A stretch of DNA of 64,000 nucleotides from Amphiscolops sp. MND2022 (taxonomy: Eukaryota), in assembly GCA_964187785.1 (NCBI GenBank), contig OZ076420.1:36394001-36458000 (forward strand), in the 5' to 3' direction. The notes beneath the pieces were generated by a model. That model saw only the letters and a list, made by a program, of their open reading frames with translations, had not been told where the DNA came from and ran no database searches. A program made the position numbers and the translations under genes. Positions 7,843 through 62,868 of the stretch are shown here, one piece after another (positions within the stretch are counted from its first letter, which is position 1; each line of letters opens with the position of its first letter).

Positions 7843-7943
7843 ATTTTTATTTTATTGATACAATTGACTCTTGGCAGAGTTTAAAAGTAGGGTTAGTTCA
7901 GGTGAAGCTACTGTTTCAGACGAGTTGAAAGACCATGTGGTGA

Positions 7944-10684: not shown

Positions 10685-10697
10685 CTCTCTCTCTTTC

Positions 10698-43200: not shown

Positions 43201-43263
43201 TTTGTTTGTCTTACTGCGATGCTGAGATTTGGGTTGTTGGGAAGCTCATACAATCTGTTGAAA

Positions 43264-43973
43264 TGTAACGTCCACCAGTCAATACCAAATTTTCGTTGAA
43301 AAATTCGTTCAAGAACCAAAAAAGGTGCGAATCAAAATGGCCGACCTGGCAGGTCCTTAAAGCCCATAAAAAAAAGAAAGAGAGAACGAGTGAACAAGAA
43401 GAATGACAGAAGAAGAAAAAGAAGTAGACGACTGACGACATGAAGATCCATGGGATAGAATTCAAAGAACGTTACCCGGTGCTGTGTCCTCCCTGGGAGA
43501 GCAGAGCCACTCCAGAACTACATGATCGGATCCCCGAGAACCCACAAACAGTAACTCCATTCCCACTCGGGGCTTATCCCCTTGATTTTGTTGATTTATG
43601 TCAATGTATTTTGCTATTTTTCCCATGCCTGACCTTCTAGGTCGGCATTTCATGCCCATGACTGTTGAAATGACAATTTTCGGATAAACACACTTTTGGA
43701 CCTCGGAAGTATGTAGGAGATGGCAGGAACGCGCTAAAACCTTAGGATACGTTTTTACAGGCTTGTGGGGCGTGTCCGGACTTTGAAAGTGCCGGCGCGT
43801 TGCCTCGGAGCTCTAATTAGAGGAGTCTCCTTAGACGTTAGAAAAGTCCCCCATGGAGACCATTTTGGGATGAAAAACTAGTGTCTAGGTATGTAGTAAG
43901 ACAACGGTCTCCTGTTTAAGCATCCTAGGCATTATCCCTCTTCCTAGATGTGCGCCGCTAGCCGGACGTTACA
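43264..43973 (+). repeat. Gypsy-2 5' LTR
   Basis: TGTAACGTCC...GGACGTTACA (10-bp terminal inverted repeat). Matches 61598-62307 except 43787 A vs 62121 G, by eye. Confidence 0.96.
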
Positions 43974-43989
43974 TCTGGAATAGTTTTTA

Positions 43990-44006
43990 TGGCGACCACA
44001 GAGGGA
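43990..44006 (+). other. Gypsy-2 primer-binding site, likely tRNA-Arg(UCG)-like
   Basis: TGGCGACCACAGAGGGA, 16 nt downstream of the LTR. Resembles the complement of metazoan tRNA-Arg(UCG) 3' ends. Confidence 0.65.
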
Positions 44007-46938
44007 TATTTTTCCTAACCGCGTCCTGCGAGGAGCAACTCCTGCTTTCCGGCCCTGAAAGGTCCGGATCTAGGAGAAGCTTTTAGGAGAGTCCTAGATT
44101 GTTTTTATTGCTTTGTTCTAGCCCTTTGGGCCTCGTATTAGTGTTTTTCCTGCGTTTCCTGCATGTTTCCGAGGTTCCCAGCCTGAAAAAGACAGTTTGA
44201 AACAGTGTACCCCCTTGTGCCTTATCTGTACTCATTAAAAAAGCTATTCCGGCTTATCCGGAACGTGTTTTAACGGGTTTTCCAGCTTCTTTTCAGCTAA
44301 TTAGCAATGTACAGGGACTGCGAGGACGATTGGTGAAGACCCGAACTAGCTGAGTGCAGGGCTGCAGGTGCTTCACGTCATAGCCTCTTCCTCCCCACTT
44401 GATGCCAATTCACCGAAGATAGCTGGGTTATTTCGTTCCCCTTACGTTTTCTAGCCCCAAATTAGTATTCCCAGGCCTGTTTTTGCATAAATTAACTGTG
44501 AATAATACCCACAGGGTATTTACATCAGTTATTTTAAGGACTTGAGCTCGAAAACGCCAAAAAAGACAGTAAAAACAGCTCAAATATCGAAATTTCCCGT
44601 TTTGAAAGCCAAAATTTTATAGAACTGTCTACGGCCTGAGGGAATACCTGAAAAACGTTCTATCGGACCTACCAGGTCGAGAACAAATAATTTTGTTGGG
44701 CTGTTTTTCTAGAAAACCTGAAAATTTCAGCAATTTTTGTTCAAAAATAGGCAAAATTGGCCATTTTGACCAATTTTGACGAGGGCGAAGCCTTGGGTGT
44801 TTGCTCCCAAGCCTCTTGAAAGGCCCAAAATTTTTGTTGTTGTGCTTGGTAGTACGCAATACTACTACCAAGACGGTTTTTGAACATCCCCAATATAAAT
44901 TGAAGTTTTAACATCACTTTTCTTTCATTAAAATAAACCTGAGTAGAGGACCCCATAGACCTGAGAGCTATAACATCAAAAATAATAATTGAAAGAACCC
45001 CACTCCCCTAAATAAAGCAGTTACACCTTCCTACTGTACCGTTGAAACCACCTTTAACCTCTGGGAACCGAAGAATAACAAGTTCCTAGGGAAAATACGT
45101 GTTTTTCATAGGTGTTCCCAGAGTGTCCAAGGTGTGACCTAAAACCAATATTGAGAGACCCTAGCTGGAACCTGCCAGGTTTCGCTCGCCTACTTTCTGT
45201 TAGTAGAGAGTACTAGATTACCAACGCCGAAAACCGCGAGTGATTCCAACCAGTGGTTACCGAGAAATAGCCAAAAACGTGTTATTTTTGTGACATTTTC
45301 GGAACACCAGAGTAGTGCTTCCAGTACAGGTCGAAATCTCTCCTAGCAGGAGTAGCCCAAAACGGATTGCACCATCGTGTAGACCATAAAAAGTTACGTT
45401 AGTGGTGTAATTTTCATAGCGCTACCATTACTAGTGATTGAGAAATCTTAGCCGCAGTTTTGCTCAAAAATGATCCGAAAATGTCGAAAAAATTGAATTT
45501 TAGTTGAGCATAGTGCTACACCTTGCGGGTATCCCAGCACTAAAATTCTTGCATTTTCGTATATACGGCGCTAGATCCCGACGATTTGTACATTTTGAGC
45601 AGCTTGCTACTGTCCAACTTGGAGAAATTGACAATTTTGTGAGTTTTAGCCCCTGAAAGTGACATACAGGGTACATCATAGTTTTGTCGACTCGGATTGC
45701 GAAATATTGACCTGGGCACCCCGCTAACTCATTTTTCTGTTACGTGGGCGTAATTCACGCTCGCATACAAAATTTCAGGTAGCTAGGACGCCTAGAAGGC
45801 GAGTTTAACCAATTTTTGCGAAATCCGCGACATAGCCAATTTCTCAGTGAACATTGTTAAGTGGCCGTGACACACGCAGAATCAATTTTAACGCAATCGG
45901 AAGCTCATTCCCCACGATTCAGCTAGTGTACTAGACGGTGTGAAATTTTCAGGTCGCTAGCACCACTAGAAGTGATTTTCGTCTTCCCCGGAGGTACTAC
46001 TTGATGAGAATAACGAGATTTTGAGAAAAAATTAATAGAAAACCCGAGCATTCCCAATCCTGACACACCCCATTCAAGGCTGGAGTCATCTATTTAACGC
46101 ATTGAGCAAGTCCCACACGCCTTACCGAACCTATAAAATCCATGTAAAGTTAGCCCCAAAATCAACGATCTTCCACTAAGCCCTCCACGAGATCAAAAGA
46201 AAGTAAACTCCAAAATTCGAAATTCGTTTCTTCCCCGCCGCTAAGCTCGCCTAGGTGGAATCTATTCGCCATAACCACCTTAAACCTACGCCTCGCATAC
46301 CCTGAGGGTACTAGAGTACGCCTGAGAATATCGAAACAATCACAAACCAGGTTTACGCAACGCGCAGAGAAACTAGAACGAGCACAGGGAAGATCACTCG
46401 CATCATTGTAACCCCTTCACCCACGACCCAAAAAGCCATAAACCAGGTCATCACTCGATACTCAACCCACTTGTTCCCAATCAAAGCCCAGATCATTCCC
46501 AGTCCATTGTCCACCCATTGTCCCGGAATCAGCCCACCCATTGTTTTCAGCCTCATCAAAAAAAAAAAAAAATTTTTTTTGAAGGAAGTCAAACCTTCTA
46601 GGTGAGAAGAAAGTAGAGGTAACTTTAGTTAACCAAACCAGCGGTAGTGTACTTAGTGCACTCCACGAAAGTAAGAAGCAGTTCAAGCCCATTTAGCAAA
46701 CCTTTACCCCAATTCGAGAAAAACGAGTGACAGAGCGCGCTAAACGGCCTAGTCAGTCAGCTGTTCAGTGCAGTTTAGATAACAGCCTTTTGAGTTATTT
46801 AGTAGAAGCAAACCCTCCTCTTTCCTTCACCTGCCATTTGTTTTGTGGGGGGGAAGGAAGTAGAGAAAAGCCAAAAAAAAAAAAAAAAATTTTTTGTTAT
46901 CTTTGATTTTATCAACTAAAACATTACATTTAGTGGCC

Positions 46939-49900
46939 ATGGAACGACGCGAGACTAACGCCATCATTAGCGACTTCCATGCCACCAACCCTTTCGGAAG
47001 AAGAACGGAAACCACAACCGAACAAAACGAATGTAGATTAGATTCAGCCATAGCAGCCGTAATTTCAGAAGCTATGTCTGACTTCGTACCGAGCCAGGAA
47101 CAAAACGCGGAAATAGCCGCTGCCAATACCCAGCCCAACTCCTCGCGAGCCTCCCCCGATAGCACCAATCTACCGGATGATGCTGAGAACAACACGCAAA
47201 GAGACACACGGCCTCCGCTGGAAGTCACTGACTACAGCTTGGAAAACTGGCCAAACTCCAACCAAGGGCCCATCAGTGAGCTCAGCATTGTTGGTACCGC
47301 CAACGAACAAAATGACACTCCGCGGGCGGACCCAAGGATGGCACAAGTCGAAAGGAACCCCCTGGGTTCCCAAGAGATGATCAATAGCATAGGCGGAAAT
47401 CCCTTCCGAAGCGGATATGCGCTATCGGAAGCACCGACCAAAACGTCGAACGGACCAGCGGAAAACTCGAAGACGAACATAACCGAGAATCCGTTAAGAT
47501 ATGTTTTTCGAACGCCACCCTCGGTGACACCAAAAATCAACTATGCGAATGCGAGTCGAACGTCTCACACACCAGACTCTCAAACTAGCGCCGACACCAA
47601 TCTCGACTCAACAATAACCAAAGCGAGAAAGGAAGTGCAAACGGTTCGAGAAGACTTTCAGAGTAGTCTGGCGCAATTAGCTCAAGTCCAGACGAGGCTG
47701 GCGAGAGAAAACAACGAACATGAGATGCGCGCCGACATGATAATGAGGGACATGGACGAGCTACGAAAAGGTCTGTTGGAAATGCAAGCGGAAGGGCGAC
47801 AAAATCAAGGTCGACTGGAAGCGTCAATGGCATCTCTCAATGATCTGATTAAACAGAGAGAAACTACAGCGGACGCTCGCATGGCCGAGATGTCTGCAAT
47901 AATGAGAGAAAGGGACCGCCAAGCAGATGAGCGCATGAAAGCAATGACCAACACGATGCAGCGTCGCGACATAGACTCCAATGTCCGCATGGCGGACTTG
48001 ATGATGGCAATGCAAGATCTGACATTGGGAGTGAAAGCAATCGTGTCGCAAACCCCCGCGCAGCAAGCACAAACGGCGCCGCGGATTCCCCAAAAATATC
48101 AACAGACCGAAATACCATCTACAAGCGAAGCTCCCCAACCTCATTATAGAACGGTGGCACAACACACAGTAGAACCTCCTAGGCCTCCAAAACTAATGCC
48201 ACCCGCAACGTACAGGCGTGACCTGTCTAAAGCTAACAAGATGGCTAAAGTGACCCACACGGAATCACGAGACGCAGGTACGGATCCAATGACTGACCCG
48301 CCGTCGCTCGACCAGTACGCTCGCGGAACATCGACCTCCGACGATTTTTATTCCGCCGCCGACGAGACGAACGCCCGCAGGACCAGCTACTACACGGCCG
48401 ATTCAAGCGCAGCATTCCGCCCACCTGCGCGAACGCAAACGTTCAGAGACTTCGTTCCGCGGCCAGTGGCCACCAGTACGCAGCGCAAAATGACAAACAA
48501 GCGGAATTTAGAACAAGGCAAAGGCGAACACAGCGACATCGAAGAAATGCCCTCAATAGCAGAAGAGACTCCAGACACGCCGAGAACTACCCAACGACAA
48601 GCACTGGCGGAAGCAATATCTACGGCCATGTCTAAAGGCTTAGAGCCGTTGCTCGCCGCCAAGGAATCCAAAAACAAGCCCACGAAATACAGAGGAACCC
48701 GAGACGGAAACGCAGATGGATGGATGATGTTAATGAAACGCCATTTGGAAAAGGCACACCCTAAGGCAACCCCCCTCGATAAGGCGTGGACAATAATCGA
48801 GTATCTAGAGCATGAAGCCAGGGATTACATCACGAATAAGTCCGAAGCAGAGAGGGACACTGACGAAAAAGTATTCGCATTATTAGCGCGTCGCTTCGGG
48901 ACAGGTTCCAGCAAAATCCACATCCAACAGCAATTTAGAACCCGCAACCAGAATAGCGATGAAGACTACATGCAATACCTTGATGCCCTCGAAGGCCTGC
49001 GTAGTCAAGGTTACCCCAATGAAGAGGTGACAGTTCGTCGATACGAAATCATGCAAAGATTCATTGAGGGAGTACGCAACTTCGAACTAAAAAGAAACCT
49101 CGCGCTAATGTATGCACCGGAACAATACGTGGAAACCCCGCCAACTGTGGAAGCCCTCCGCTTCACAGTGCAACAATACTTACGCATGCGAGGCTCGACC
49201 CGTTCGGACAACTACCCAATGATGCCTCCTCCACAACAACAAGCCAATATCCAACAACCAAATCAGTCCCCAGTAGCACCCACGCCTGCCCAAAAAGTGC
49301 CACAACAACAGCCTCCTCAACCAGCAGCATACCAACAACAACCAATGCCACCGGCAGCCTATCGACCGCAACCCCAAAGAGCGTGCTTCAACTGCGGAGA
49401 CCCATCGCATTTTGTGGTAGACTGCCCCCTGAAAGACCGTGCACGGAAGCCAGTACAACAGCAGGTGAACTCCTGTCACACGAACCCGACGGGTAGTTGG
49501 ATGTGCCCCTCCCAGCCACACGGCTTAAACTATGATGTGTTCCCAGCATCCCTACCAACCCAAGGCACTGTTGCCTTTTGCATTAATTGCGGCCGTACTG
49601 AACACTCGGCGTCAGAATGCATGGCCTCGGAACAGATGGGTCACGAAGAACAAATCCGTGCAGCTTGGTATGCTCCTTCACCAAGTCAATTCGATGGCCT
49701 GAGTCAAGACGACCAAGTCCGGGTAATATCAGTAGCGGAAGACGGAGGTCCCTCCCGACCTGTAGTAGTCACTTGTGGCGAGAAACAAGTACTCACCACA
49801 CTAGAGGCACCCGCCCCAGATTGCACAGAGACACTTATCTCAATACACTTGCTACTCTCGGCCGAACAGAAAACGCGACCCACGCTGACGCTCTCGCAAC

Positions 49901-52900
49901 TAAAGGAAGAATTATGCAGAAACGTGAAGTATACCATCGCAGCCCGACCGCTCCCACATTTTGCGCGAGAAGACGAAACGAAACTGGCCCCAATACAGAA
50001 AGTTAAAACCGTTTCTCCGGTGCCGGTAGCCATTAACGTAGACGGTGTAGACATGAAATTTGATGCTATTGTAGTCTTAGAAGGCCACTTCCCTCAGGGA
50101 TTGTATTTGGGCCGCCAGGAGTTACGATGTTATAACATCGGAGTGCAAGATGCCCAGGGGGAGGCTCGTATTGACGAAAGGGCATCCCTGGTGGTTGCCT
50201 TTGGCAACACTATCCAGGAACCAATACCCTTGTACGGGATGATAGACACCGGTTCCGGTGTCTCCATTCTCTCCCTCAAAGCCTATCAAAAAATTGCATC
50301 ACCCCACGCCTTGAGCCTCCTACCGTATGACATCCAACTGTATGCCGCCAACGGTAAAACCATCAACACCATTGGAATCGCCGAAAATGTTAGCTTCCAG
50401 TTGGGCGGATACACCCTCCGAACCAATTTCATAGTCATTGCCGATCACCTAGGCGCGGAAGACTTCCTACTTGGCAGAAACTTCTTGCGCACCTACAATG
50501 TTCTCGTGGACCTGACGGCCATGAGGGTCACTATACGAGACCCCAAAGCGCCACGCCACTTCAAACCCGTCCATGAGGTAAGTGATCATGAGCCATCCCT
50601 AGTGATATCCACCGAAAAAGTAGTTCTAGGCCCCTATGAGCGTAGGCTAGTACGAGCCCAAATCATTTCTCAAAAGCACAACGAGTACCTTTTCCGAAAC
50701 GTAATGATTCGCCCCCAGGGGACATCTAAACGATCCCCCTTTGTTTCAGAAGATACATTGACGTCTGTTGGAGATGAAGGCATTGTCTTCATAGCCCTAC
50801 GAAACACTACCCCCTCTGAAAACGTAACCATTCAAACCAAAACTGTCCTCGGTAAGGCAGAAACTACAAAATTTGTGTTGCAACCTGTGGCTGCCGACAC
50901 GGCAACCGAAGTTGATAAATCTTTGTTTGAACAAGTTAATAAAGTTTATACCGAAGAGTGGTTAAACGAAACGAGTTCAGAATATAGTTCTTTTGCTCAA
51001 AACTTCTTGTCCTCTACTGAGATGTCTGAAGAAGGATTATCGGAAAGCGAAAAGCGTGCTAAGACTGACCCACAATTGCTAAAACCTATACCAGGTCCAG
51101 ACCTTTCTTCCGTCCTTTCTTCGTGGGGGGAGGGAGCGAGAGATCAACTAGCAAGCGTTCTGAGCGAGTACGATGACCTTTTTATGAAACATAAAGCCGA
51201 CATAGGGAGGTGCAAAATAGCAAAACACCGCATAGAACTAGAGCCGGAAGCTATCCCGCATAGAGAAGGCGCTCGGCGCATGTCCCCGGATAAGGCAGCA
51301 AAGGCTAATCAAGAGGTACGGAATCTACTGGCCCTTGGCCTAATTCAACCCTCCTATTCACCGTGGGCAAGCGGAATAGTCATGGTCAAAAAGAAAACAG
51401 GCGAACTTCGCTTCTGTTGTGACTTTCGACCGCTCAATGACGTAACGGTCAAGGACGCATTCCCATTGCCCAGGATTGATGAAAGTCTATCCCGGATAGG
51501 CAATGCGAAAATCTTCACAAGTATCGACCTAGCGTGGGCCTTCTGGCAGATACCGCTAAAGAAGCGCGATAGAAGGAAAACAGCATTTGCCTGTGAACTG
51601 GGATTGTTCGAATGGCGGCGCATGCCCTTTGGGCTATGCAATGCATCGGCCACATTTCAGCGCTCTATTACACGGGCCCTGCAACGGATCCAGCAGCGAC
51701 ACGGGAGTGTCGTCATGGCTTACATTGACGACATAGTTATCGCCACGGAAACCATAGAAGACCACATCGTACGAATCAAGGAAGTATTCGAATGTCTCCG
51801 AGAGGCTGGATTCAAGATGCGCGCCGAGAAGTGTGATTTCATGCGCACGGAGACGAAGTACCTGGGGCGAGTGGTATCCTCGGAGGGCATCAGACCAGAC
51901 CCCGAAGCTATAGTTAAAATCCAAGAATGGATGCCCCCGAGAAACAAAGAGGAGCTTCAGAGCTTCCTGGGGTTTGCAAACTATTACAGGGACTTTGTAC
52001 CGTTTCATGCAGCCAAAGTGCAACCCCTGCAAGAGTTGCTCAAGAAAAGTCAGCATTTCCACTGGGAAACGAAACACCAAGAAGCCTTCGATGCAGTAAA
52101 GGAAGCACTGGCAAACGCGACCGCCTTGGCAGCCCCAAATGAAGACGGACGATTCGTGCTCGATACTGATGCTAGCGCAGTAGCGATAGCTGGAATCCTG
52201 CACCAGGAACAAGAACACAATGGGAAGACTATTTTGCGGCCAATAGTCTTCGGGAGCAAATCCCTGACGAAGACACAGCTAAACTATGGAGCACCCAAGT
52301 TGGAAATGTACGCAGTATTTTACTTCATCGAGAAATTCCATTCATATCTCGCAGGCCGAGAGTTCACGCTCCGTGTGGACAATCAGGCCCTGTCATGGCT
52401 TAAAACGTACTCCATGGACCAAGCCATGATAGGTCGCTGGATAGCCCGTCTAGATCAATACAACTTCAAGACGATCCACCGACCTCGCACACAGCATCGA
52501 AACGTAGACGGCCTCAGCAAACGAACCAACGACTACGTGCACCGGGAGAAAATCCTCGAGAAGTTACCGGAAGTGAGTGAAGGATTCAACTTCATGACCA
52601 AAGAAGACTATGAAGCGCTCCCCACCGTACCATACTTCGACAAACACGGACGCCCAATACCAAACCACCCAGAGCTCCCGCCGGAAGCTCGAGCCCAACT
52701 CCCACTGCTGTATATCTTGGGAAAAAGACCCAAAACGAGCCTGCAAGAGCCCCCGGTGAATGGTGCCCCATGGTATCCTCAAGTACAGTGGGAGGCGACA
52801 CCTACCACAGATGAGGATCACCGACCCACTCACATCCTCAGCATCACGACCAAAGTGCCACCGGCACGCCTAGACACTGAAAAACCTGATCCTGTGCTTG

Positions 52901-55900
52901 AAGAGATGCCACCCGAATGCCAAACACAAGCCAACGCCCTTAGAACAGTTGGGACAGAGCTGCATGAACACTTTTTGACTAGACGTGGCCTCAAAGACCT
53001 GCACCTAGCACAAAATAGGGACGTACACCTCCTAGCGTTGAGGAAACTCATGAAAGGCGAACCACTGGAGGAAACGATGTTCCCCGACGACGTACAGGAC
53101 TTCGCACGACGCTACTTCCATCAAAAGAAAGACCTGCTCTTCCTGAACCCAGACGACATTCTCTGCGTCAACTACGTTCCGCAACAACGTGCGCTGCACG
53201 TGCGACCGTGTATGATAGTCATGCCACAACTATACCAGCACGAGATTCTGTATAGGGCACACGACGAATCGGGACATCAGGGCGTAGGGAAGGTGCTAGC
53301 GAGAGTACAAGAACGGCACACCTGGCCGGGCATCAAGCGTGACATAGTCAATCACATCAAGCACTGCTTGACCTGCCAGCAAACAAAACACCCCGCCGGG
53401 AACCCCTGCTACCCCTTGCAGAACATCAACAGTAGCAATTTCAACGACCTAGTACAATTCGACCACCTCAAACTTTGCAAAACCGACTCGGGAAACACCG
53501 GTCTCTTAGTCATGATAGACCACTTCACGAAATTTGCCGAGGCCATTCCATGTGCCCACGACGAATATGATGCCCAAACCACAGCTAAAATCATCCTTAA
53601 CAAATGGTTTGCCAGGCACGGCACCCCAGCACGGATGCAATCCGACAATGCCACGAATTTCACAGCTGAAATCGCACAGGAGCTAATGAAAGCCTCGCAA
53701 GTCACTAAAGTGACATCCACTCCAGCGCATCCTCGAGGGAATGGACTCGTGGAAAGGCAGAACCGAACGTTACTCACACTGCTGAGAGTCTACACTTCTC
53801 GACGAATGCAGGATTGGGATGAGCATATTGATGGAATCCTCGGTGCGTACAATTCAACTAGACACGCAACCACTGGATTCTCTCCCTATATGCTCCAACA
53901 CGGAGCCGAGAAATCAATTCCCCTGTCATTCATCTACCCAGAATTTGCTGCCCGAGGATTCGATTCCAAAGAAGAATTCGTAGAACATCTTCTAGCCAGA
54001 CAGCAAGAAATCCATGAACTCGTCAGAAGAAATACACACCAAGCACAGCTACGCCAGAAGCTGAAGTTTGACCGCCACCTGAAGGCCAAAGCGCATGCTG
54101 TAGGCGATGCGGTGTGGGTGTTCTGCCATATCATACCCAAGGGTGGCACCCGCAAGCTGATTCGCGCATGGCGCGGACCCCACAAGGTAACCGACGTGTT
54201 GCAGGACGGACGATTATACGTACTAGACACTGGCCAAAAGGTCCACTACGAAAGATTGAAAAAGCATGTGCCTGCCCCTTGGGACTGGGCCGCACACCAG
54301 CCCTTTGGGCCGAATCAAAACGTAGCCATTATTGCTGATCCGTACGTAGAAGAAAGCAATGAAGAGATAGCGTCCGACATCTCCCAAGACTCTTTCCTAC
54401 CGGAACAACTTCCGGAAGCATCCTTCGAAATGGAACCGACAGGATCGATTCCACCTCGTACCATTCAGACTCGTACCCAAACGGCACTCGAACAAGGAAT
54501 ACCCAGAAGAAGATTCAGCCACTTCGGGTACCCCTCCAACTCAGATTCCGAAACAGAGGAAAATGAACCACCGATTCAGAGCCCACCACCGCCAGTAGTG
54601 TTCCCCGACTTAGACGACCTGGAACCACTGTACTCCGACCAGGAGGAAATTCAGCCGGCCGTACCTACAAGTCTGATACCATCACCCTCAGGGACCTCAG
54701 CCCCCCTACTATCCAATCCGTCCCTAACAGACACCCTGAGTAACTTTCCCTTGTTTGGCCCCCAACTAGAGAACCCGATCGACCCGATAGAAAATAAACC
54801 AAAGTCAGAAACTGAGAATGAGGAAGAGACAACCCATCGCAGTCCAAGCCATTGCTCAACGCAACCCAATACCACGAATAGTAGAGGACGGCCTCGAGGC
54901 CGACCACCGGGTAGAGGAAAATCCCGCGCTATACCATCTACTAGAACCACAACATCGTCACGAACCCAAACCGCACGACCCAGAAGAGGCCCCAGAGCAA
55001 GAACGAGCACTCGTGCACCCCCTCGAAAACTAGACCGAGCGATGACTCTACCAGAAATACCCGAAAGCCAACAACCACCAGATGTCCAGGATTCAGAACC
55101 AAGACCATCATCGCGAACATCACGATATCAACTGCGAGCTAACAGAGCACCACGTTACAAGTGTGGAACCTGTGGTTCCCGCAACTGTAGTTGCGTCAAG
55201 CATCTGACTCGCCAGTCACCGGACGACCGATTGGCCCGGGGAGCAGTAGTCCCTGCCAGGGATCTCTTTATGGCTAGGACACATTGTCACCCACAACATG
55301 AGATCTTAGCCGTGCAAGCCCAACGAGAAAAGGTGGAGACACCCCCGCTAGTGCACCATTTGGTCATCACGGTAGAAAAAACTTTCACCAGTGTGGAACG
55401 AGAAGCGATACCACCACTGGAAGAAACACTCAAAGCGATGCACGCGACATCTCCCTCTGACTGCCCGACTTACCGATTCAAAGAATGGACACTTCCCCAT
55501 CGGGGCGGTCTAGAATTCACCCTACATGCCATCATACCACCTTTGCCACCATCGATGACGTTCGGCGAGCTAGCAAAAGAGGATAGTAGCCCGGAGATGA
55601 TTCGCTGTATCACTGCACACCAACTGTGGGAGAAATATCACATTGCCTCCCCGCCGGGAGACATATATCAGCCCACCAATGGATGGTGGCTACTTGTCAC
55701 CTCTCTAGACGCAACGACATTGGTATCTCCAACAACTTTACTGATGTGCTTAGAAAGTTTACGTACGGTAACCGAACCTGAGAACACGCTTTGTTTCCAC
55801 ATGGCCGATATTTATCGTGGCAAGTTCCTAAGCCAACACTGGCTACAGTTAATAGCGGTAGTCTTTTGCCGGCAGGCGAAGATACACTTCCTGGATCGAC

Positions 55901-56598
55901 AATCTTATACACCAGAAAAACCCGTGACAATTAGCGAAGCACTCTCAATAGTACACGATTGGTCATCTACAAACTTGGGAGATAGACCTCTACGACGAAC
56001 CGTCTGGGAAGACCGAAAAGCAATCTTGCAGCATTTGACACCCCGACCCACCGATGATCAGAGCAGAACCACCGGCAAATGGCTCATAACCCAGCCTAAA
56101 ACCAGACCGAATTACTTACCTTGGATAAGCTATGACGACACAGATATCCTGCAGGCACCTGGCACCGTAATATTATGCTGCCCTGCGGATTTGTTCTCTT
56201 ACTCGGCTACGATCCGTTACGTCATTCGCGAATACGGTCAAGAAAACATATTTCGTCTAAGACCATCAGTTGGCACCGCAATTCGTTTAACCCGCTCGCC
56301 AACTGCACCCTGGAATAACGAAATCTTCCTTCTGTGTACCAGAGCATCAAACAAGCATCCGCTCTTACATGAGGTATTACATGCGTGTTTGACGAATTTG
56401 ATAACTCAACTCCATCGAAACCACATTACCAGAATCCACTTGCCCATCTATGATCCTGAGCGATCGATGAACCTCCTCCCAGCCTGGTACGCCACCCTAC
56501 GCGACCACTTTGCAGATCACAACATAACAATAGTCTTGCACGATCGCGTCTATGTCACAATAGCGTCGATTACCTCTGCCAACTTTGGCGGTAGTTAA
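46939..56598 (+). CDS. pol: Gag-Pol polyprotein (~3,219 aa from the ATG) with C-terminal macrodomain-like extension
   Basis: gccATGg at 46939 (the track starts at an upstream TTG). CCHC knuckles at 49384 and 49579; PR IDTGSG at 50245; RT YIDD at 51721; RH DTDAS, VDNQAL; IN HHCC (HDESGH...CLTC), FDH, SDNATNF, NGLVER. About 800-aa tail after IN. Confidence 0.96.
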   Translation: MERRETNAIISDFHATNPFGRRTETTTEQNECRLDSAIAAVISEAMSDFVPSQEQNAEIAAANTQPNSSRASPDSTNLPDDAENNTQRDTRPPLEVTDYSLENWPNSNQGPISELSIVGTANEQNDTPRADPRMAQVERNPLGSQEMINSIGGNPFRSGYALSEAPTKTSNGPAENSKTNITENPLRYVFRTPPSVTPKINYANASRTSHTPDSQTSADTNLDSTITKARKEVQTVREDFQSSLAQLAQVQTRLARENNEHEMRADMIMRDMDELRKGLLEMQAEGRQNQGRLEASMASLNDLIKQRETTADARMAEMSAIMRERDRQADERMKAMTNTMQRRDIDSNVRMADLMMAMQDLTLGVKAIVSQTPAQQAQTAPRIPQKYQQTEIPSTSEAPQPHYRTVAQHTVEPPRPPKLMPPATYRRDLSKANKMAKVTHTESRDAGTDPMTDPPSLDQYARGTSTSDDFYSAADETNARRTSYYTADSSAAFRPPARTQTFRDFVPRPVATSTQRKMTNKRNLEQGKGEHSDIEEMPSIAEETPDTPRTTQRQALAEAISTAMSKGLEPLLAAKESKNKPTKYRGTRDGNADGWMMLMKRHLEKAHPKATPLDKAWTIIEYLEHEARDYITNKSEAERDTDEKVFALLARRFGTGSSKIHIQQQFRTRNQNSDEDYMQYLDALEGLRSQGYPNEEVTVRRYEIMQRFIEGVRNFELKRNLALMYAPEQYVETPPTVEALRFTVQQYLRMRGSTRSDNYPMMPPPQQQANIQQPNQSPVAPTPAQKVPQQQPPQPAAYQQQPMPPAAYRPQPQRACFNCGDPSHFVVDCPLKDRARKPVQQQVNSCHTNPTGSWMCPSQPHGLNYDVFPASLPTQGTVAFCINCGRTEHSASECMASEQMGHEEQIRAAWYAPSPSQFDGLSQDDQVRVISVAEDGGPSRPVVVTCGEKQVLTTLEAPAPDCTETLISIHLLLSAEQKTRPTLTLSQLKEELCRNVKYTIAARPLPHFAREDETKLAPIQKVKTVSPVPVAINVDGVDMKFDAIVVLEGHFPQGLYLGRQELRCYNIGVQDAQGEARIDERASLVVAFGNTIQEPIPLYGMIDTGSGVSILSLKAYQKIASPHALSLLPYDIQLYAANGKTINTIGIAENVSFQLGGYTLRTNFIVIADHLGAEDFLLGRNFLRTYNVLVDLTAMRVTIRDPKAPRHFKPVHEVSDHEPSLVISTEKVVLGPYERRLVRAQIISQKHNEYLFRNVMIRPQGTSKRSPFVSEDTLTSVGDEGIVFIALRNTTPSENVTIQTKTVLGKAETTKFVLQPVAADTATEVDKSLFEQVNKVYTEEWLNETSSEYSSFAQNFLSSTEMSEEGLSESEKRAKTDPQLLKPIPGPDLSSVLSSWGEGARDQLASVLSEYDDLFMKHKADIGRCKIAKHRIELEPEAIPHREGARRMSPDKAAKANQEVRNLLALGLIQPSYSPWASGIVMVKKKTGELRFCCDFRPLNDVTVKDAFPLPRIDESLSRIGNAKIFTSIDLAWAFWQIPLKKRDRRKTAFACELGLFEWRRMPFGLCNASATFQRSITRALQRIQQRHGSVVMAYIDDIVIATETIEDHIVRIKEVFECLREAGFKMRAEKCDFMRTETKYLGRVVSSEGIRPDPEAIVKIQEWMPPRNKEELQSFLGFANYYRDFVPFHAAKVQPLQELLKKSQHFHWETKHQEAFDAVKEALANATALAAPNEDGRFVLDTDASAVAIAGILHQEQEHNGKTILRPIVFGSKSLTKTQLNYGAPKLEMYAVFYFIEKFHSYLAGREFTLRVDNQALSWLKTYSMDQAMIGRWIARLDQYNFKTIHRPRTQHRNVDGLSKRTNDYVHREKILEKLPEVSEGFNFMTKEDYEALPTVPYFDKHGRPIPNHPELPPEARAQLPLLYILGKRPKTSLQEPPVNGAPWYPQVQWEATPTTDEDHRPTHILSITTKVPPARLDTEKPDPVLEEMPPECQTQANALRTVGTELHEHFLTRRGLKDLHLAQNRDVHLLALRKLMKGEPLEETMFPDDVQDFARRYFHQKKDLLFLNPDDILCVNYVPQQRALHVRPCMIVMPQLYQHEILYRAHDESGHQGVGKVLARVQERHTWPGIKRDIVNHIKHCLTCQQTKHPAGNPCYPLQNINSSNFNDLVQFDHLKLCKTDSGNTGLLVMIDHFTKFAEAIPCAHDEYDAQTTAKIILNKWFARHGTPARMQSDNATNFTAEIAQELMKASQVTKVTSTPAHPRGNGLVERQNRTLLTLLRVYTSRRMQDWDEHIDGILGAYNSTRHATTGFSPYMLQHGAEKSIPLSFIYPEFAARGFDSKEEFVEHLLARQQEIHELVRRNTHQAQLRQKLKFDRHLKAKAHAVGDAVWVFCHIIPKGGTRKLIRAWRGPHKVTDVLQDGRLYVLDTGQKVHYERLKKHVPAPWDWAAHQPFGPNQNVAIIADPYVEESNEEIASDISQDSFLPEQLPEASFEMEPTGSIPPRTIQTRTQTALEQGIPRRRFSHFGYPSNSDSETEENEPPIQSPPPPVVFPDLDDLEPLYSDQEEIQPAVPTSLIPSPSGTSAPLLSNPSLTDTLSNFPLFGPQLENPIDPIENKPKSETENEEETTHRSPSHCSTQPNTTNSRGRPRGRPPGRGKSRAIPSTRTTTSSRTQTARPRRGPRARTSTRAPPRKLDRAMTLPEIPESQQPPDVQDSEPRPSSRTSRYQLRANRAPRYKCGTCGSRNCSCVKHLTRQSPDDRLARGAVVPARDLFMARTHCHPQHEILAVQAQREKVETPPLVHHLVITVEKTFTSVEREAIPPLEETLKAMHATSPSDCPTYRFKEWTLPHRGGLEFTLHAIIPPLPPSMTFGELAKEDSSPEMIRCITAHQLWEKYHIASPPGDIYQPTNGWWLLVTSLDATTLVSPTTLLMCLESLRTVTEPENTLCFHMADIYRGKFLSQHWLQLIAVVFCRQAKIHFLDRQSYTPEKPVTISEALSIVHDWSSTNLGDRPLRRTVWEDRKAILQHLTPRPTDDQSRTTGKWLITQPKTRPNYLPWISYDDTDILQAPGTVILCCPADLFSYSATIRYVIREYGQENIFRLRPSVGTAIRLTRSPTAPWNNEIFLLCTRASNKHPLLHEVLHACLTNLITQLHRNHITRIHLPIYDPERSMNLLPAWYATLRDHFADHNITIVLHDRVYVTIASITSANFGGS

Positions 56599-56928
56599 GA
56601 GCACGTCTCGCCCTCTACTTGGCATATCAGGCCACTGGCCTTTTGCACTGCCTGTAGTTGATTCGAAGCACTTTAAAATTTTAACAAAACCGCGCCGACA
56701 AGCGCAAATTTTAATACTAACCACTGTAACTTTTTAACCTTATGTTTGTGTGTTCGTCCTAAAGAGCTTAACTGCCCACCCGTCTATGTGATGTCTTATC
56801 TCCAACTGTGACCTGTTTTTCAGTTTTGTCCTGTTGCCTCGCCTCTGCGCGGCCCCCATACTTATCACGCCAAATCAGTCTTGCCATCACAATCTTCGGT
56901 GCTAAACATCCCTTTATTATCGTTTCCA

Positions 56929-59900
56929 ATGGACCCATCTGCGCGACACCGCCTGCCTGCACCCCAGAACGCTGCGCGTGCCCAACCATCCACTAGGAAC
57001 GACCCACCTCCAATGATGAGCGAGATAGATGGTCGAGTCGACCAGCTAGCCCTCGTCCAAGACACCCTTCTAAACGGAGCGACACCTACAATGATTACTG
57101 GCTTTGCCATGATCATCGCCCAAACCCAAGCTCAAGCTGAGTACCCTGATATTAGCTTCACTATCACCAGCCGAGTCGGCCCGATAGAACGCTCCGCCAC
57201 TTTTCGCGACGGCACCTGGCAAGGGTATGACTTGACCCATAGCCTCATAGACCCTCGCTCTCACGTAGTCTATGGAGAACCTACCAGGCCTCCCATGGAT
57301 CAAGAACGATCACTCCGTATTTCACAGTCAGCACTACAGACATTACAGACGCAAACTACGACCCCGTTGCCCTCACCGCACCCGGTGCAGTTCAGCTGCA
57401 CTTTGCCAATCGTGCCACCCCCAGTACTAACACCGCCCATGCCCCTGGCATCGGAAGGCATTCGCCTACTGACCACCCCATCCTCTACCTTCATGCCTCC
57501 ATCTACCTTTCAGGGGGGAGGGGTGCAAGTAGACAATACAGCAAGTGCTACCCTGAGCGAAGAACAGCCCAGGAGAACGGTGACGTTCAAAGATTCATAT
57601 GAAGAATTAACTCAGACGTCTTCCAGAACCGAATCTCAAGTCTCGGAACCTCCACAAGCCTCAGAACCAGCTAGCCTAGTAGGCTTCCAAATGGACCCAC
57701 AATTCCGAGAACGTCAGCGAGAACAACAAAAAGCAGAAAGTAAGGCAGCCAACACTGTGGTAGACCTCCGGGAGAAAATAAAAGCTGGAAAGCGAGCCAG
57801 AGAGGCGATCATGCAAAGCAAACAATCGAGCTCGACCAGTGCCCCGCAACCCTTGTCTGCCTCACCTACGCAACCAGAAACAAGGAGACCGAGAATAACA
57901 CACGAACTCCTAACACATTCGGAAAAACGGCAGCTGGATATCACTGCACGCGACGCACTGCGTCTGCAGCGGGAAATACCAACCACAACGCCACCAGAAG
58001 ACCCTCTACGACAGAAATTCGAGACCGCAACGGGAACTGGGGACTACGCCACAAGGCAGAAAATAGAAAAAGCCACAGTGGGAGTACTCTACAATCGTCC
58101 CGTCAAGAAACCAGTGTTCACTCAAGATGGATGCCCCCCATGGTTCAATCGCATGCGAGCAGAATTGGAGAGAGTGAACTCGACATACATGCGTATTCCT
58201 GACAACTTCCTCCGACAGCGCCCTGGCCGCTTCGACGAAGACCGCTTGCGAACAAAAAACTATGCGAGGGACCCCATTACAATCCTGCCCATGGGAAAGG
58301 ATCTCTTGCAGAAAACCAGAATAGCCTTCTTCGTCGACTCGACGATGAAGTCTTCATTCAACTCTCACAACACCCTTATGGATGTCAGAATAATGAACAT
58401 GCCCTGTACAACACTGAACGAAATGGCAGAAGTGACCGACAAAGTATTCACCCAAGCGGGAACAGAGACCATCCCATTACCTCCGTTGCTGGTATATTCA
58501 AATGTTATAGATCACCTCGCTTTGCGAGGGACCTTGGAATTTTTCCGACCAGACCACGAAAGATTTACTGAGGGGTTCGTCACCGACGAAGTGACCAACT
58601 ACGTGGAGACAATGGCGAATATTGCCCAAACTATGCGCAGAAGGAAAGCTGTCACTGGAACGGTATTTATGTCGCCTCCAGGCTACATGCACCTTCCTCG
58701 GACCCTTCAGCAATTCTTATACCTAGTAATGGAGGCAGCGTACGCAAGAGATCTGGCCTTTTACATTGTGGCCCCCAATTTACGCATCAGCAATAATAGC
58801 TGGCGCCCTTGTGAAGCCTCTTACCCAGCCTTCATTGCTGAAGTCTCAAAGGCCCTTCAATCATACGTCGGTTACCGTGGAAACTCCCAAATGGTAGTGG
58901 ATGAAGCAGCAGCATTCGACTACGGGATGGAAATGGCTCGCCGATCATTGAATGAACGTGGAGACAGAATCGTAAACGACCCAAACGAAAGTGAGCGCAA
59001 TAACCTGGTGGATAACCTCTGGTTTGAACGCCGGGACGAGTCAACTGTAGACGAAAAAACACACGAACCCAAGTTTCACAAGGAACTCACAAAGCTAATG
59101 AAAGAAACCGAGACGGTTCTGGGTGATAGAAAGAATTCCTCCATCTTCCCCATGGCTCAAATATCATTAGATGCTGAACCTGGGCAAAGATCGCCGACAT
59201 TGGCCATGCTGTTGATACTGGCTCGAGACGTTATACAAAAGAATATTCAAGAGCCGACACACACGTACCAAACATGGCACGATCAACTACGAGAACCTTT
59301 GGGCCAAGTCGCGGACCGACTGGGTATAACATTTCCCGTATTTCTCCACAACATCTCTCCCTTCTGGCTTCCTTCCTTAGTACAAGCCGAGTACGGCCTA
59401 GATGAGCAGCGAATGCGACTCTACATGGAGGCCATGGAAAGAGCGACCGTTAGTGAACTACTAGCGTACCTGATGGCCGTGGGGTTAACCATGATGTACA
59501 GAGGACCATCGGCCCTCATACAAAAGTTCGTGCTCAACAAGGGAGGCTCAGCCCTGTTCAGCTTCCTAGTCTTCTCGCAGAATCAAAGAGGTTGGATATC
59601 TGCGCTCATTGAAACCCTAGACCCAGCGGGTTCCTTGAAATTAAAGACGCAGCTGGACTTAAACGTTCAAGCACTGCTAGTGTGGATTTATTCCACCTGG
59701 GTCAATGTCTCGGGCGTTATGCATCCTCTGGATGAGTGCCCAGCTATTAACCGAGACCCCAATCAACTTCCTGGGTTCCTGTTCCCTACACAAGTTGCAA
59801 CACTAATGCTCGTAGAAACAGAGGACCTAATGCCCCTCATTGCTCCGATAGTCTGGCCCATCTTCGGCGCAGTCATGGCCCTACGCTATCCAACGCAAAC

Positions 59901-61023
59901 CCTGCGAGTGGCAGCAGTGAGCCCTTCCCTCTCGATTCTACATTTCGTGACCTCTGATGGGCCCCTTCAGGGTCCCACCTATCAATCAGTGATACACAGC
60001 TTTGCCAACTTGCGACCTCCCTTGGCGTATACCGTAATCAAAGACCGCCAACAAGTGGAACACAACTATCTCTCCTTGATCAAGGCGAGAGCACGTAGCT
60101 CGCTCCCTTTGCCGATGGAAATCCATCCTGTAGTTTGGCTGCACACCCCTATTGATCCAAATAATGGAGCAGTGGCGACATTCGAAGGGTGGGACGTGCC
60201 AGTTGTCCTGCGTATCTTGAGAACAATTATCCAAAGATTGGGTGGTCGTCGAAAAGGAGAAGAACCTACTAGGTTATTGTATCCCTATGCGTGTGACACT
60301 TCCAGAATATATTGTGCGAGGACAGAGCCCCGCGAGCACACCGCCAGAATCTTGAATACCATTACGTGTTGGGCCCAGCCGGAGCTCGTGGACCTCGCTA
60401 TACACCAGACCTTCCAACAGCTGCCGACAACTATTCCGACAGTAGCCAAGGAACCAAGCAAGAAAGATTTGCCCGTGAACACTGACGTTCCCAGCAATCC
60501 GCGTATGGCACTAGAGATATTCGTGCGCCTGCATGGTCTCCAACGAGAACGTACTCGAGCAGTGGGCGAAGAGTACGCTAGGGGAATACGAACGTTCAGG
60601 CAGCTGTTCATCCAATATGGCCACCAAGAATTAGCGGACGGTTTGCCGAACTTGGAATCACTCGAAGCTATCCCGGGAATTAGCGATTTGAGCGAAGCTG
60701 CCTCTGGCAGCTCTCGCACCGCCTTCCCCACACCCCACGTGAGTCAAGACTCCAATGAAATATTGGTGGAAAGAGCACAAGATGATGTGCCAGACGTCAT
60801 GCCACCATCAGGGGAACCTATGACTGGTAATAACTTCACGTTCTCTGACGCCACCACTCCTGTAAGAGATGAAGTGGAAACCAATATCTCGAACTTGGAG
60901 GCAGCGGACATAGAGTCAGAGCTCAATAATCTGCTGACAATAGACGAAGAGTATCAGAACACAGTGGATGCCATGGGCAACACCTCAGTCCAAGAAACCC
61001 CACAGGATCAACTGCTGGAATAA
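56929..61023 (+). CDS. Accessory ORF2 in env position (~1,364 aa) with SGNH-hydrolase-like domain
   Basis: First ATG at 56929 (the track starts at TTG 56881); no stops. P/T/S/Q-rich N-terminus, charged coiled coil, SGNH-like blocks at ~58321-58860, hydrophobic helices at ~59450-59890, acidic tail. Confidence 0.88.
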   Translation: MDPSARHRLPAPQNAARAQPSTRNDPPPMMSEIDGRVDQLALVQDTLLNGATPTMITGFAMIIAQTQAQAEYPDISFTITSRVGPIERSATFRDGTWQGYDLTHSLIDPRSHVVYGEPTRPPMDQERSLRISQSALQTLQTQTTTPLPSPHPVQFSCTLPIVPPPVLTPPMPLASEGIRLLTTPSSTFMPPSTFQGGGVQVDNTASATLSEEQPRRTVTFKDSYEELTQTSSRTESQVSEPPQASEPASLVGFQMDPQFRERQREQQKAESKAANTVVDLREKIKAGKRAREAIMQSKQSSSTSAPQPLSASPTQPETRRPRITHELLTHSEKRQLDITARDALRLQREIPTTTPPEDPLRQKFETATGTGDYATRQKIEKATVGVLYNRPVKKPVFTQDGCPPWFNRMRAELERVNSTYMRIPDNFLRQRPGRFDEDRLRTKNYARDPITILPMGKDLLQKTRIAFFVDSTMKSSFNSHNTLMDVRIMNMPCTTLNEMAEVTDKVFTQAGTETIPLPPLLVYSNVIDHLALRGTLEFFRPDHERFTEGFVTDEVTNYVETMANIAQTMRRRKAVTGTVFMSPPGYMHLPRTLQQFLYLVMEAAYARDLAFYIVAPNLRISNNSWRPCEASYPAFIAEVSKALQSYVGYRGNSQMVVDEAAAFDYGMEMARRSLNERGDRIVNDPNESERNNLVDNLWFERRDESTVDEKTHEPKFHKELTKLMKETETVLGDRKNSSIFPMAQISLDAEPGQRSPTLAMLLILARDVIQKNIQEPTHTYQTWHDQLREPLGQVADRLGITFPVFLHNISPFWLPSLVQAEYGLDEQRMRLYMEAMERATVSELLAYLMAVGLTMMYRGPSALIQKFVLNKGGSALFSFLVFSQNQRGWISALIETLDPAGSLKLKTQLDLNVQALLVWIYSTWVNVSGVMHPLDECPAINRDPNQLPGFLFPTQVATLMLVETEDLMPLIAPIVWPIFGAVMALRYPTQTLRVAAVSPSLSILHFVTSDGPLQGPTYQSVIHSFANLRPPLAYTVIKDRQQVEHNYLSLIKARARSSLPLPMEIHPVVWLHTPIDPNNGAVATFEGWDVPVVLRILRTIIQRLGGRRKGEEPTRLLYPYACDTSRIYCARTEPREHTARILNTITCWAQPELVDLAIHQTFQQLPTTIPTVAKEPSKKDLPVNTDVPSNPRMALEIFVRLHGLQRERTRAVGEEYARGIRTFRQLFIQYGHQELADGLPNLESLEAIPGISDLSEAASGSSRTAFPTPHVSQDSNEILVERAQDDVPDVMPPSGEPMTGNNFTFSDATTPVRDEVETNISNLEAADIESELNNLLTIDEEYQNTVDAMGNTSVQETPQDQLLE

Positions 61024-61583
61024 AGGAGTCCTCTGGACCCTCAAGACTGTTAGAACATAATTGAGCATAAAGGACCCTGTCGTCAATATATTAATGCCAA
61101 TTCTTGTGCTATACCATCTTACTGGTGCTGAAAACTTTCAGTGCAATAAACCTTAATTCCTGAGTTTTGTTTGATGTATATTATACTTTGCTACCATTGT
61201 AACAATGCAATATAGTTACATCCTCTGGGTGGGTCCCGGCTCGGTGCCCTCCCGTTTTGATTTGAATTGGAAACTTCTACCAAGCCCAAAAGTTGTTATT
61301 ACTCATCTGGCCGCGCAGGGGCCCTATTTTAGAAAAAGAAATTTTAACTTGAACTGAGTAGTTAGTGAAAAAACCTTTTAAAGAAAGAATCCGACTGCAA
61401 AATTTTTAATTTAAAAATCAGTGCTTTTTGAATTCGATGGCTTTAAGGTGCTAGACATGTAGTAGTGAGGCGAAAAGAATAATAGTGTGATATCAACGTA
61501 TCTTTGACATAAGACCTTTTCTGTGGACCTCAGAGTACCCTTTGGGTGCGAGCATCCTCTCGTTTGCCGAGGACGACAAACTA

Positions 61584-61597
61584 CGGCCCGGGGAGGA
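61584..61597 (+). other. Gypsy-2 polypurine tract
   Basis: ...CGGCCCGGGAGGA immediately before the 3' LTR TG. Confidence 0.7.
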
Positions 61598-62307
61598 TGT
61601 AACGTCCACCAGTCAATACCAAATTTTCGTTGAAAAATTCGTTCAAGAACCAAAAAAGGTGCGAATCAAAATGGCCGACCTGGCAGGTCCTTAAAGCCCA
61701 TAAAAAAAAGAAAGAGAGAACGAGTGAACAAGAAGAATGACAGAAGAAGAAAAAGAAGTAGACGACTGACGACATGAAGATCCATGGGATAGAATTCAAA
61801 GAACGTTACCCGGTGCTGTGTCCTCCCTGGGAGAGCAGAGCCACTCCAGAACTACATGATCGGATCCCCGAGAACCCACAAACAGTAACTCCATTCCCAC
61901 TCGGGGCTTATCCCCTTGATTTTGTTGATTTATGTCAATGTATTTTGCTATTTTTCCCATGCCTGACCTTCTAGGTCGGCATTTCATGCCCATGACTGTT
62001 GAAATGACAATTTTCGGATAAACACACTTTTGGACCTCGGAAGTATGTAGGAGATGGCAGGAACGCGCTAAAACCTTAGGATACGTTTTTACAGGCTTGT
62101 GGGGCGTGTCCGGACTTTGAGAGTGCCGGCGCGTTGCCTCGGAGCTCTAATTAGAGGAGTCTCCTTAGACGTTAGAAAAGTCCCCCATGGAGACCATTTT
62201 GGGATGAAAAACTAGTGTCTAGGTATGTAGTAAGACAACGGTCTCCTGTTTAAGCATCCTAGGCATTATCCCTCTTCCTAGATGTGCGCCGCTAGCCGGA
62301 CGTTACA
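61598..62307 (+). repeat. Gypsy-2 3' LTR
   Basis: Offset 18334 from the 5' LTR; same termini. Confidence 0.96.
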
Positions 62308-62321
62308 AAATGTGTGCATTG

Positions 62322-62868
62322 TAGGCATCCGATGTTTTTCTATTCTTTTTTATTTTTTTTTCTAAACAAGCAACTCTTTATCTGTGAGAAAATTTTAAAG
62401 TATAATTGATGTGTGTATTGATACTGAAGTAAACTGTTCTCAATCCATGTTTTGTCGTATGCCAATGTTAATTTAATATAAATTATCATAATTAGTTTTC
62501 ATCGCAAAAGTTCATCGTGGGGATTTTTCCCTCCAGATGCCTGATTCTAACCAAAGGAACCATAACTAGTTACGATAATTCATTTTTAATTAGCATTGGA
62601 ATACGGAAAAAATTAAATGGGAACAATTTCATTCAGAATCGATACACAAATCAATTATACTCTAAAATTTTCTCAGATATTAAAGAAATGATTGGTAATT
62701 ACCAATCTGTGAGGAAAATTATACTCTAAAATTTTCTCAGATATTAAAGAAATGATTGGTAATTACCAATCTGTGAGGAAAATTATACTCTAAAATTTTC
62801 TCAGATATTAAAGAAATGATTGGTAATTACCAATCTCTTAAGAGGAAAACTGAAAAATCGGATGCCTA
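62322..62868. mobile_element. MITE-like element with TA-flanked inverted ends and an internal tandem array
   Basis: TAGGCATCCGAT(G)TTTTTC at 62322 vs GAAAAATCGGATGCCTA at 62852-62868. The terminal TA is compatible with a Tc1/mariner-type TSD. Confidence 0.5.
62653..62836. repeat. 64-bp tandem repeat, 2.9 identical copies, each with an 18-bp palindrome
   Basis: Units start at 62653, 62717 and 62781; each contains GATTGGTAATTACCAATC. Confidence 0.92.

Follow-up and report, generated by a model that had tools for sequence, protein, structure and literature searches.

A predicted SGNH-fold pseudo-esterase domain within the env-position protein of a 19-kb Ty3/Gypsy-like retrotransposon from Amphiscolops sp. 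MND2022

The DNA stretch analyzed here (the window; 64,000 nucleotides of Amphiscolops sp. MND2022, contig OZ076420.1, positions 36,394,001 to 36,458,000 of the forward strand) contains an intact long terminal repeat (LTR) retrotransposon of 19,044 bp (positions 43264-62307). Its second open reading frame (ORF2) lies in the env position and contains a segment that, judging from its modeled structure, almost certainly adopts an SGNH esterase fold. From its residue pattern, this domain probably performs no hydrolysis and is likely catalytically dead. An earlier note on this DNA, made from the letters alone, had pointed to an SGNH/GDSL-hydrolase-like fold here on the strength of five motifs, and all five are present as it described them, in frame in the ORF (Table 1).

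The fold assignment is supported by an AlphaFold2 model of amino acids (aa) 480 to 735, built template-free from a 60-row alignment, with a predicted local distance difference test (pLDDT) score of 82.9 and a predicted template modeling (pTM) score of 0.79. The model contains five strands alternating with helices, a trait of the three-layer alpha/beta/alpha SGNH architecture. Compared with 48,161 solved chains, it is closest to brain platelet-activating factor (PAF) acetylhydrolase (Z of 12.6; root mean square deviation [rmsd], 3.4; 170 residues aligned), where the background is stated to reach a best Z of 7 to 8. Over two structure comparisons, the best Z is 12.6 to 12.9 and SGNH hydrolases dominate the matches; 63 chains have a Z of 8 or above, the chain at rank 50 still scores 9.1, and SGNH/GDSL proteins dominate the 50 listed. 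Foldseek gives a best E value of 4.3e-4 and finds the esterase of the zebrafish long interspersed nuclear element (LINE) ZfL2-1 (4c1b) at 2.4e-3. SGNH/GDSL matches recur in three structure libraries, and the best named matches in the viral library are SGNH domains, with no viral fusion protein among the 50 rows listed there (several of them unnamed). Thus, Foldseek and the structure libraries agree on the proposed fold, over a span slightly wider than the 58321..58860 given earlier. That SGNH is not simply what the method yields for any input is shown by a model of the C-terminal part of ORF2 (aa 736 to 1290; 77-row alignment; low pLDDT of 53.9), which reached a best Z of only 5.3, with no Foldseek match.

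At the sequence level, the domain is invisible. Relatives were gathered first as 11 proteins and then as 368 at an E value of <=0.001, of which the best 150 are listed. Pfam has no hits for ORF2 or two of its subsegments, nor an SGNH family in any of the 60 aligned members, and comparison of ORF2 with the sequences of solved structures gives one chance match per search. The best ESM Atlas score for ORF2 is 0.81, to helical Med5-like clusters, which is below lead level; a wider profile search for relatives returned only six, all already known, and searches for genomic context among metagenome and viral contigs came back empty. Because neither Pfam nor sequence searches see the domain, similar ORFs elsewhere have probably been annotated as "env-like" or as unknown.

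The active-site residues were assigned in a register inferred from four lines, not from model coordinates. The structural alignment with Escherichia coli TesA runs from model residues 22..208 on chain residues 1..179 and, if its ends are ungapped, places Ser510 on what we take to be Ser10 and Arg665 on what we take to be His157 of that enzyme. The divergent relative P0305 has Gly in the column of Cys532, and the motif G-I-N-D-H of P0238, a protein of a related lineage, aligns over N-V-I-D-H of the window. The distance from Ser510 to Cys532 is 22 residues, equal to that from S143 to G165 in ZfL2-1 (PMC3905857).

Residues were counted in 15 divergent rows chosen by hand, namely P0305 and 14 rows from the 60-row alignment, with a row left out of the count at any column where it has a gap. 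The serine had been described as retained and the histidine as replaced, and the divergent rows bear out both statements (Ser510 and Arg665 in Table 1). The residue loss is wider than was then stated: the block II Gly, the block III Asn, and the block V Asp are also gone. Within block III, N564 and D567 are present in 14/14 rows and H568 in 12/14, with Asp or Tyr replacing it in the other two, while column 566, where the oxyanion Asn would fall in the register taken from P0238, has Asn in 0/14 and a hydrophobic residue in 14/14. In block V, His is found in none of the 15 rows and Asp in one. Across the full 60-row alignment, decayed fragments included, Ser is present in 34/36 rows, Arg in 40/51, and His in 2/51. 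By this residue test, the domain falls outside the active SGNH hydrolases, and the pattern supports the suggestion of the earlier note that it is probably noncatalytic.

The same conservation could be read as that of an atypical enzyme, in which Ser510 would be the nucleophile, paired with His568 or Arg665, of a slow esterase or acyltransferase. S510 (10/11), D567 (14/14), H568 (12/14), and N564 (14/14) are kept, and conservation here is the strongest in ORF2. However, the block V His is missing from 15/15 rows and the block II Gly from 12/13, H568 is itself Asp or Tyr in two rows, and in a related lineage the homolog of the dead domain is accompanied by another SGNH domain that is intact, all of which makes residual activity quite unlikely.

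The ratio of nonsynonymous to synonymous substitution (dN/dS) for the domain is 0.06, 0.07, and 0.07 in three unsaturated pairs of natural intact copies. In four deeper comparisons, for which synonymous sites are saturated, domain identity is 78, 63, 65, and 37%, the highest of eight ORF2 regions. The pseudo-esterase domain is under purifying selection and hence functional. The fold has thus been kept under strong selection after loss of the catalytic set, with one fixed Arg-for-His replacement down to about 25% identity. A dead domain of this kind separates binding from catalysis, so that the reason why retroelements capture esterase folds can be tested on a single domain of 200 residues.

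As to what is bound, we tentatively favor a lipid. ORF2 would be a soluble intracellular accessory protein, presumably cytoplasmic, with a pseudo-esterase pocket containing Ser and the fixed Arg; the former active-site pocket would hold an anionic ligand, with a phospholipid as the likeliest candidate, and lipid-bound ORF2 would dock the RNA-protein complex of the element onto membranes inside the cell. A phosphate group would be well accommodated by a serine hydroxyl next to an invariant arginine, and the attribution of that phosphate to a lipid follows the analogy with ZfL2-1. The esterase of ZfL2-1 binds anionic phospholipids and liposomes, even when its active site is mutated, but not oligo-A RNA (PMC3905857). 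Taken as a whole, this reading is possible but falls short of probable.

Several points weigh against it. Liposome binding by ZfL2-1 is driven by a basic surface (PMC3905857), whereas the net charge of the ORF2 domain is about zero, with an isoelectric point (pI) of 5.7 to 8.8 in 14 rows (6.3 to 9.7 in six host esterases). Among dead SGNH domains, the best known is that of Oskar (OSK); it is one of the structure matches (Z of 9.2; rmsd, 4.2; 161 residues aligned) and binds RNA (PMC5785220), which by analogy would suggest a different ligand. In sequence, the domain resembles the esterases of other retroelements no more, or hardly more, than shuffled sequences do: one profile comparison with esterases of other elements in this genome is not significant (E value of 0.05; 1/30 shuffles higher), and a second is marginal (E value of 0.007; probability of 5.7%; above 50/50 shuffles). 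Furthermore, an alternative block III register could make the invariant N564 the oxyanion Asn, and the near-invariant serine together with H568 may leave some room for unusual catalysis.

The Oskar match bears on another explanation, in which ORF2 is an RNA-binding pseudo-esterase like OSK that, made from a spliced mRNA, binds the unspliced RNA of about 18 kb, perhaps at the 2-kb leader, and aids its export, localization, or protection, as CERV does for Cer1. OSK has no catalytic residues and binds RNA (PMC5785220), CERV provides a precedent (PMC10309623), and a conserved noncoding leader is present. A T-run and AG precede ORF2 in 7/7 aligned copies, which suggests that ORF2 is translated from a spliced mRNA; an upstream spliced exon could in principle add to its N terminus. 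In a search of DNA spanning the acceptor-like site, the 40 scored matches (the best of 424 candidates) are all unspliced, as the design of the search dictates. The leader may be a packaging or export signal, or its conservation may reflect recombination between families; Rfam gave one chance match and none to the leader. A basic linker lies ahead of the domain in 4/7 relatives. However, it is missing in the other 3 (pI of 5.5 to 6.0), the domain itself is neutral, OSK scores 3 Z units below the active esterases, no strong conserved nuclear-import motif is present, and the splicing is predicted only. We therefore regard RNA binding as rather doubtful, and the lipid-bound docking protein described above remains our preferred reading.

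A dead fold might instead serve as a protein-binding scaffold or a counterdefense factor, working together with the C-terminal extension of Pol; its partner would be a protein of the host or of the element, or else a ligand of nucleotide type. That extension is macrodomain-like, with moderate support: its profile matches related Pol proteins in the region that Pfam assigns to Macro (independent E values of 2e-10 to 1e-7), it scores 0.89 to 0.90 against Atlas clusters, and it has no solved-structure match by sequence. By eye, it possibly comprises two tandem copies. ORF2 and the macrodomain-like tail co-occur in the families examined, related Pol proteins bear Macro or Upf1-like helicase domains, which are typical host-interaction cargo, and the surface charge of the domain is neutral, all of which would fit such a role. 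The former active site, with its invariant Ser, Asp, and Arg, suggests a small ligand instead, and we consider the scaffold unlikely. In P0258, a more distant Pol relative, the C terminus is an SF1 helicase of the Upf1-like type (AAA_11/AAA_12).

The earlier note spoke of a protein replacing env, which is a statement of position only. ORF2 is most probably not an Env, as judged from its sequence, because a signal peptide, a furin site, and a convincing membrane anchor are all missing. From the first Met, none of 7 relatives has a hydrophobic core in its first 35 residues (maximum Kyte-Doolittle [KD] value over 10 residues, -0.56 to 1.34, by a simple hydropathy test, not SignalP). No furin site (R-X-K/R-R) is found in the ORF2 of the window, and one is found among 7 proteins scanned. 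No convincing C-terminal membrane anchor was found, and the only strongly hydrophobic stretch of 19 residues is probably a buried helix. ORF2 has eight cysteines after its Met. Neither does the part of it that was modeled with confidence as SGNH resolve to a known viral glycoprotein. The coiled coil that had been reported upstream of the domain is weak (0.72, compared with 0.9 to 1.0 for the Gag coiled coil), and on this crude heptad scale the best upstream window scores 0.53 to 0.85 in 7 relatives, at a position that is not conserved.

An envelope substitute, by which particles would leave and enter cells with no fusogen involved, would fit the env position, the very high copy number, and the youth of the family, and membrane-crossing roles have been proposed for GDSL ORFs (PMC5408684, PMC6431247). 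Given the lack of the Env features listed above, we hold this to be highly improbable. Furthermore, no env-bearing ancestor was found, Rodriguez et al. themselves favor auxiliary roles, and another Gypsy family of this genome has an intact Pol esterase plus a separate ORF that is env-like by eye. In the latter, distant family (L090-L097, L160-L165), the intact SGNH domain is in frame after the integrase, the downstream ORF has a hydrophobic N terminus, and the target-site duplication is 5 bp.

The origin of the domain can be traced in part. In a quick reverse transcriptase (RT)-RNase H (RH) tree (72 rows, database hits only, without curated reference elements), the ORF2-bearing families form one clade (Shimodaira-Hasegawa-like approximate likelihood ratio test [SH-aLRT] support of 100), nested within a larger group of unresolved branching order (96) that also contains P0233 and the clade of P0238, whose RT-RH is 57% identical. 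To judge from its layout, P0238 is a copy with an internal deletion, since coding sequence from further downstream continues directly from its truncated integrase. One of its domains is an SGNH domain that retains every catalytic motif (Pfam GDSL E value of 8.8e-7, below the curated cutoff). About 250 aa past this intact domain lies a truncated one, in a segment chosen by eye, whose score with the ORF2 profile is 18.6 bits (0/1,000 shuffles reached this score; best, 6.5), with an independent E value of 0.0034 among 314 proteins; an earlier, narrower profile placed it only second of 2,001. The same order, an intact SGNH domain and then a truncated homolog of the dead one in a single reading frame, is seen in the P0238/P0284 lineage. 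Because P0238 carries this homolog beside an active domain, the dead domain appears to predate the split from that lineage, and duplication followed by loss of catalysis would be the simplest story. The active domain of P0238 has no sequence similarity to the ORF2 profile, which weakens the duplication story, and the P0238 evidence rests on one two-member cluster. Two queries did not find the lineage in this genome.

The same genome carries intact esterases on LINE-like elements, several families of which have ORF1 esterase domains (L098-L119), and on the Pol of the distant Gypsy family. None of these is detectably closer to the ORF2 domain. When ORF2 was compared with six esterases of the host and with the active P0238 domain, the scores were no better than those of shuffles, 20 to 778 of 1,000 of which reached them. 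Since the candidate esterases did not beat sequence shuffles, no donor is named.

Retroelements that have taken up an esterase fold include LINEs, Penelope-like elements, and rotifer LTR elements. The earlier note cited the ORF1p of LINEs as the known case; a closer precedent is the GDSL/SGNH ORF3 of the bdelloid rotifer LTR element Vesta, which, as here, is a separate post-pol ORF in the env position without a transmembrane domain (PMC5408684). Vesta ORF3 keeps the invariant catalytic residues (PMC5408684), whereas the ORF2 domain is changed at four of five positions and, unlike ORF3, is embedded in a 1,364-aa protein with further domains. GDSL derivatives in Athena-L (Terminon) elements are also retroelement borne and without catalytic residues, but Athena-L is Penelope-like, not LTR (PMC5408684). 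The ORF1p esterase of ZfL2-1 (CR1/L2/RTE-X LINEs) shares the predicted fold and the Ser-to-block II spacing but has an active triad, a basic membrane-facing surface, a dimerizing coiled coil, and a gag position in a non-LTR element (PMC3905857). Oskar OSK (5a4a) likewise has the SGNH fold without catalytic residues, and the RNA binding is that of OSK (PMC5785220); it differs in being part of an insect host gene with a LOTUS domain, and no sequence link to it was found. Searches of open-access text, a scope that leaves Repbase, subscription journals, and supplements outside, turned up no other env-position protein of this size with a catalytically dead SGNH domain. In its working, the domain would be comparable to the SGNH domains already described from retroelements. 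The dead SGNH domain within a large env-position protein appears to be a new combination; SGNH in the env position was already known, and the close bdelloid precedent lowers the novelty.

Table 1. Features of the element and of its ORF2 (positions in the window; residues numbered in the stop-to-stop ORF)
Feature	Position	Strand	Remarks
SGNH-fold pseudo-esterase domain, predicted	58267..58884	+	aa ~486-691 of stop-to-stop ORF
IAFFVDS, block I	58321-58341	+	
Block I Asp509-Ser510-Thr511	58336..58344	+	D509 11/11, S510 10/11 divergent rows
MPCTT, block II	58399-58413	+	
Cys532 at block II glycine column	58405..58407	+	Gly in 1/13 divergent rows
YSNVIDHL, block III	58495-58518	+	
Block III N564-V-I566-D567-H568	58501..58515	+	Aligned to G-x-N-D
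VFMSPP	58663-58680	+	
WRPCEASYPAFIAEVSKAL, block V-like	58801-58857	+	
Arg665 at catalytic histidine column	58804..58806	+	Arg 15/15 divergent rows; register inferred
Small conserved N-terminal ORF2 domain	57019..57306	+	31-72% identity, 7/7 loci
All-helical ORF2 domain, aa ~825-957	59284..59682	+	Confident in model, no fold match
Only strongly hydrophobic ORF2 19-mer (KD >1.5), aa 1006-1024	59827..59883	+	Two prolines; mid-protein
ORF2, env position (after pol, before 3' LTR)	56812..61023	+	1,403 aa stop-to-stop; 1,364 aa from Met at 56929
Splice-acceptor-like site upstream of ORF2	56816..56823	+	T-run then CAG; T-run + AG in 7/7 aligned copies
ORF1, single Gag-PR-RT-RH-IN polyprotein	46864..56598	+	3,244 aa stop-to-stop
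Pol C-terminal extension, macrodomain-like	55723..56570	+	Moderate support
5' LTR	43264..43973	+	710 bp, TG..CA ends, 1 mismatch vs 3' LTR
Noncoding 5' leader, ~2 kb	43974..46028	+	76-80% identity between families; their ORF2 46-60%
Primer-binding-site-like motif, first bases TGG	43990..44007	+	Also present in the most divergent families
Short purine tract upstream of 3' LTR	61590..61597	+	
3' LTR	61598..62307	+	Differs from 5' LTR at 1 of 710 bases
3-bp target-site duplication (AAA)	Left 43261..43263, right 62308-62310		

The remaining features of the element are those of an LTR retrotransposon with one long polyprotein upstream of ORF2 (Table 1). ORF1 encodes zinc knuckles, protease (PR), RT, RNase H, and integrase (IN) in Ty3/Gypsy order, and about 570 nucleotides (nt) separate the end of ORF2 from the 3' LTR. 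Beside the pseudo-esterase, ORF2 has two further conserved domains, neither with a known match. In all seven elements, the primer-binding-site-like motif begins about 16 nt inside from the LTR and does not adjoin it. No tRNA gene lies within the 64-kb window.

The carrier family is abundant, very young, and recently very active. All 150 scored genome matches to the segment (150 of 2,781 candidates) are at least 94% identical, 149 of the 150 have no internal stop, and about 110 (table counted by hand) lie in frames of roughly 1,400 aa. Six further genomic elements share the layout, with ORF2 identities of 93, 60, 46, 46, 30, and 30%. Of 20 other copies examined, 17 have both termini, and 16 of these 17 show a 3-bp duplication with TG..CA ends, none showing one of 4 to 7 bp; mismatched flank pairs, used as a control, matched in 1 of 272 cases. 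Across families, the duplication is 3 bp in six of seven elements and 4 bp in one, and it is 5 bp in a distant Gypsy element of the same genome.

This duplication length affects the classification. Traits of Ty3/Gypsy (Metaviridae) are present, including the Gag-PR-RT-RH-IN order, the TG..CA LTRs, and a CX2CX4HX4C knuckle, and a GPF/Y-like motif reads GPH at aa 2438, after the integrase core. Because the duplication is 3 bp and not 4 to 6 bp, which is usual for Ty3/Gypsy (PMC12440569), the element is filed only as Ty3/Gypsy-like. Duplications of 3 bp are given as particular to Troyka LTR retrotransposons, which share them with this element but have CG..CG ends, LTRs of 100 to 400 bp, a CX2CX8-10HX4C knuckle, and no GPF/Y, and for which no ORF2-like ORF is described in the available part of the paper (PMC12440569). 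Membership in Troyka was rejected on the TG..CA ends, the knuckle, the GPH motif, and the 710-bp LTRs of the present element. Literature searches for other cases of 3-bp duplication, by title or abstract, gave nothing relevant. Burro, a group of giant Gypsy-like elements of planarians, resembles this element in its great length and accessory domains but carries apoptosis- and ubiquitin-related domains and Env homology within ORF1 (PMC6431247). The available part of that description does not mention SGNH or a macrodomain, and Burro is set apart on this basis (PMC6431247). Searches of the literature on a guessed host group found no description of the present element.

The carrier family is notable in its own right: it is 19 kb long, has been highly active of late, and makes 3-bp duplications, which a 2025 paper ties to Troyka. 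As a long shot, an undescribed lineage of giant Ty3/Gypsy-like elements with 3-bp duplications may have captured an SGNH esterase and converted it into a module that grips lipids through its Ser and Arg, with ORF2 as a matrix-like movement protein that would load the 19-kb particles into host vesicles for Env-free spread from cell to cell.

Elsewhere in the window, the region from 4900 to 26400 contains a tandem duplication of about 3.9 kb (6800-15800) with internal repeats of 32 and 64 bp, a duplicate pair spaced 19.5 kb apart, and fragmented long ORFs on the minus strand (18800-25400); these repeats and ORFs are probably other transposons. Just to the right of the element, an inverted repeat and a 64-bp tandem repeat occupy positions 62377-62844.

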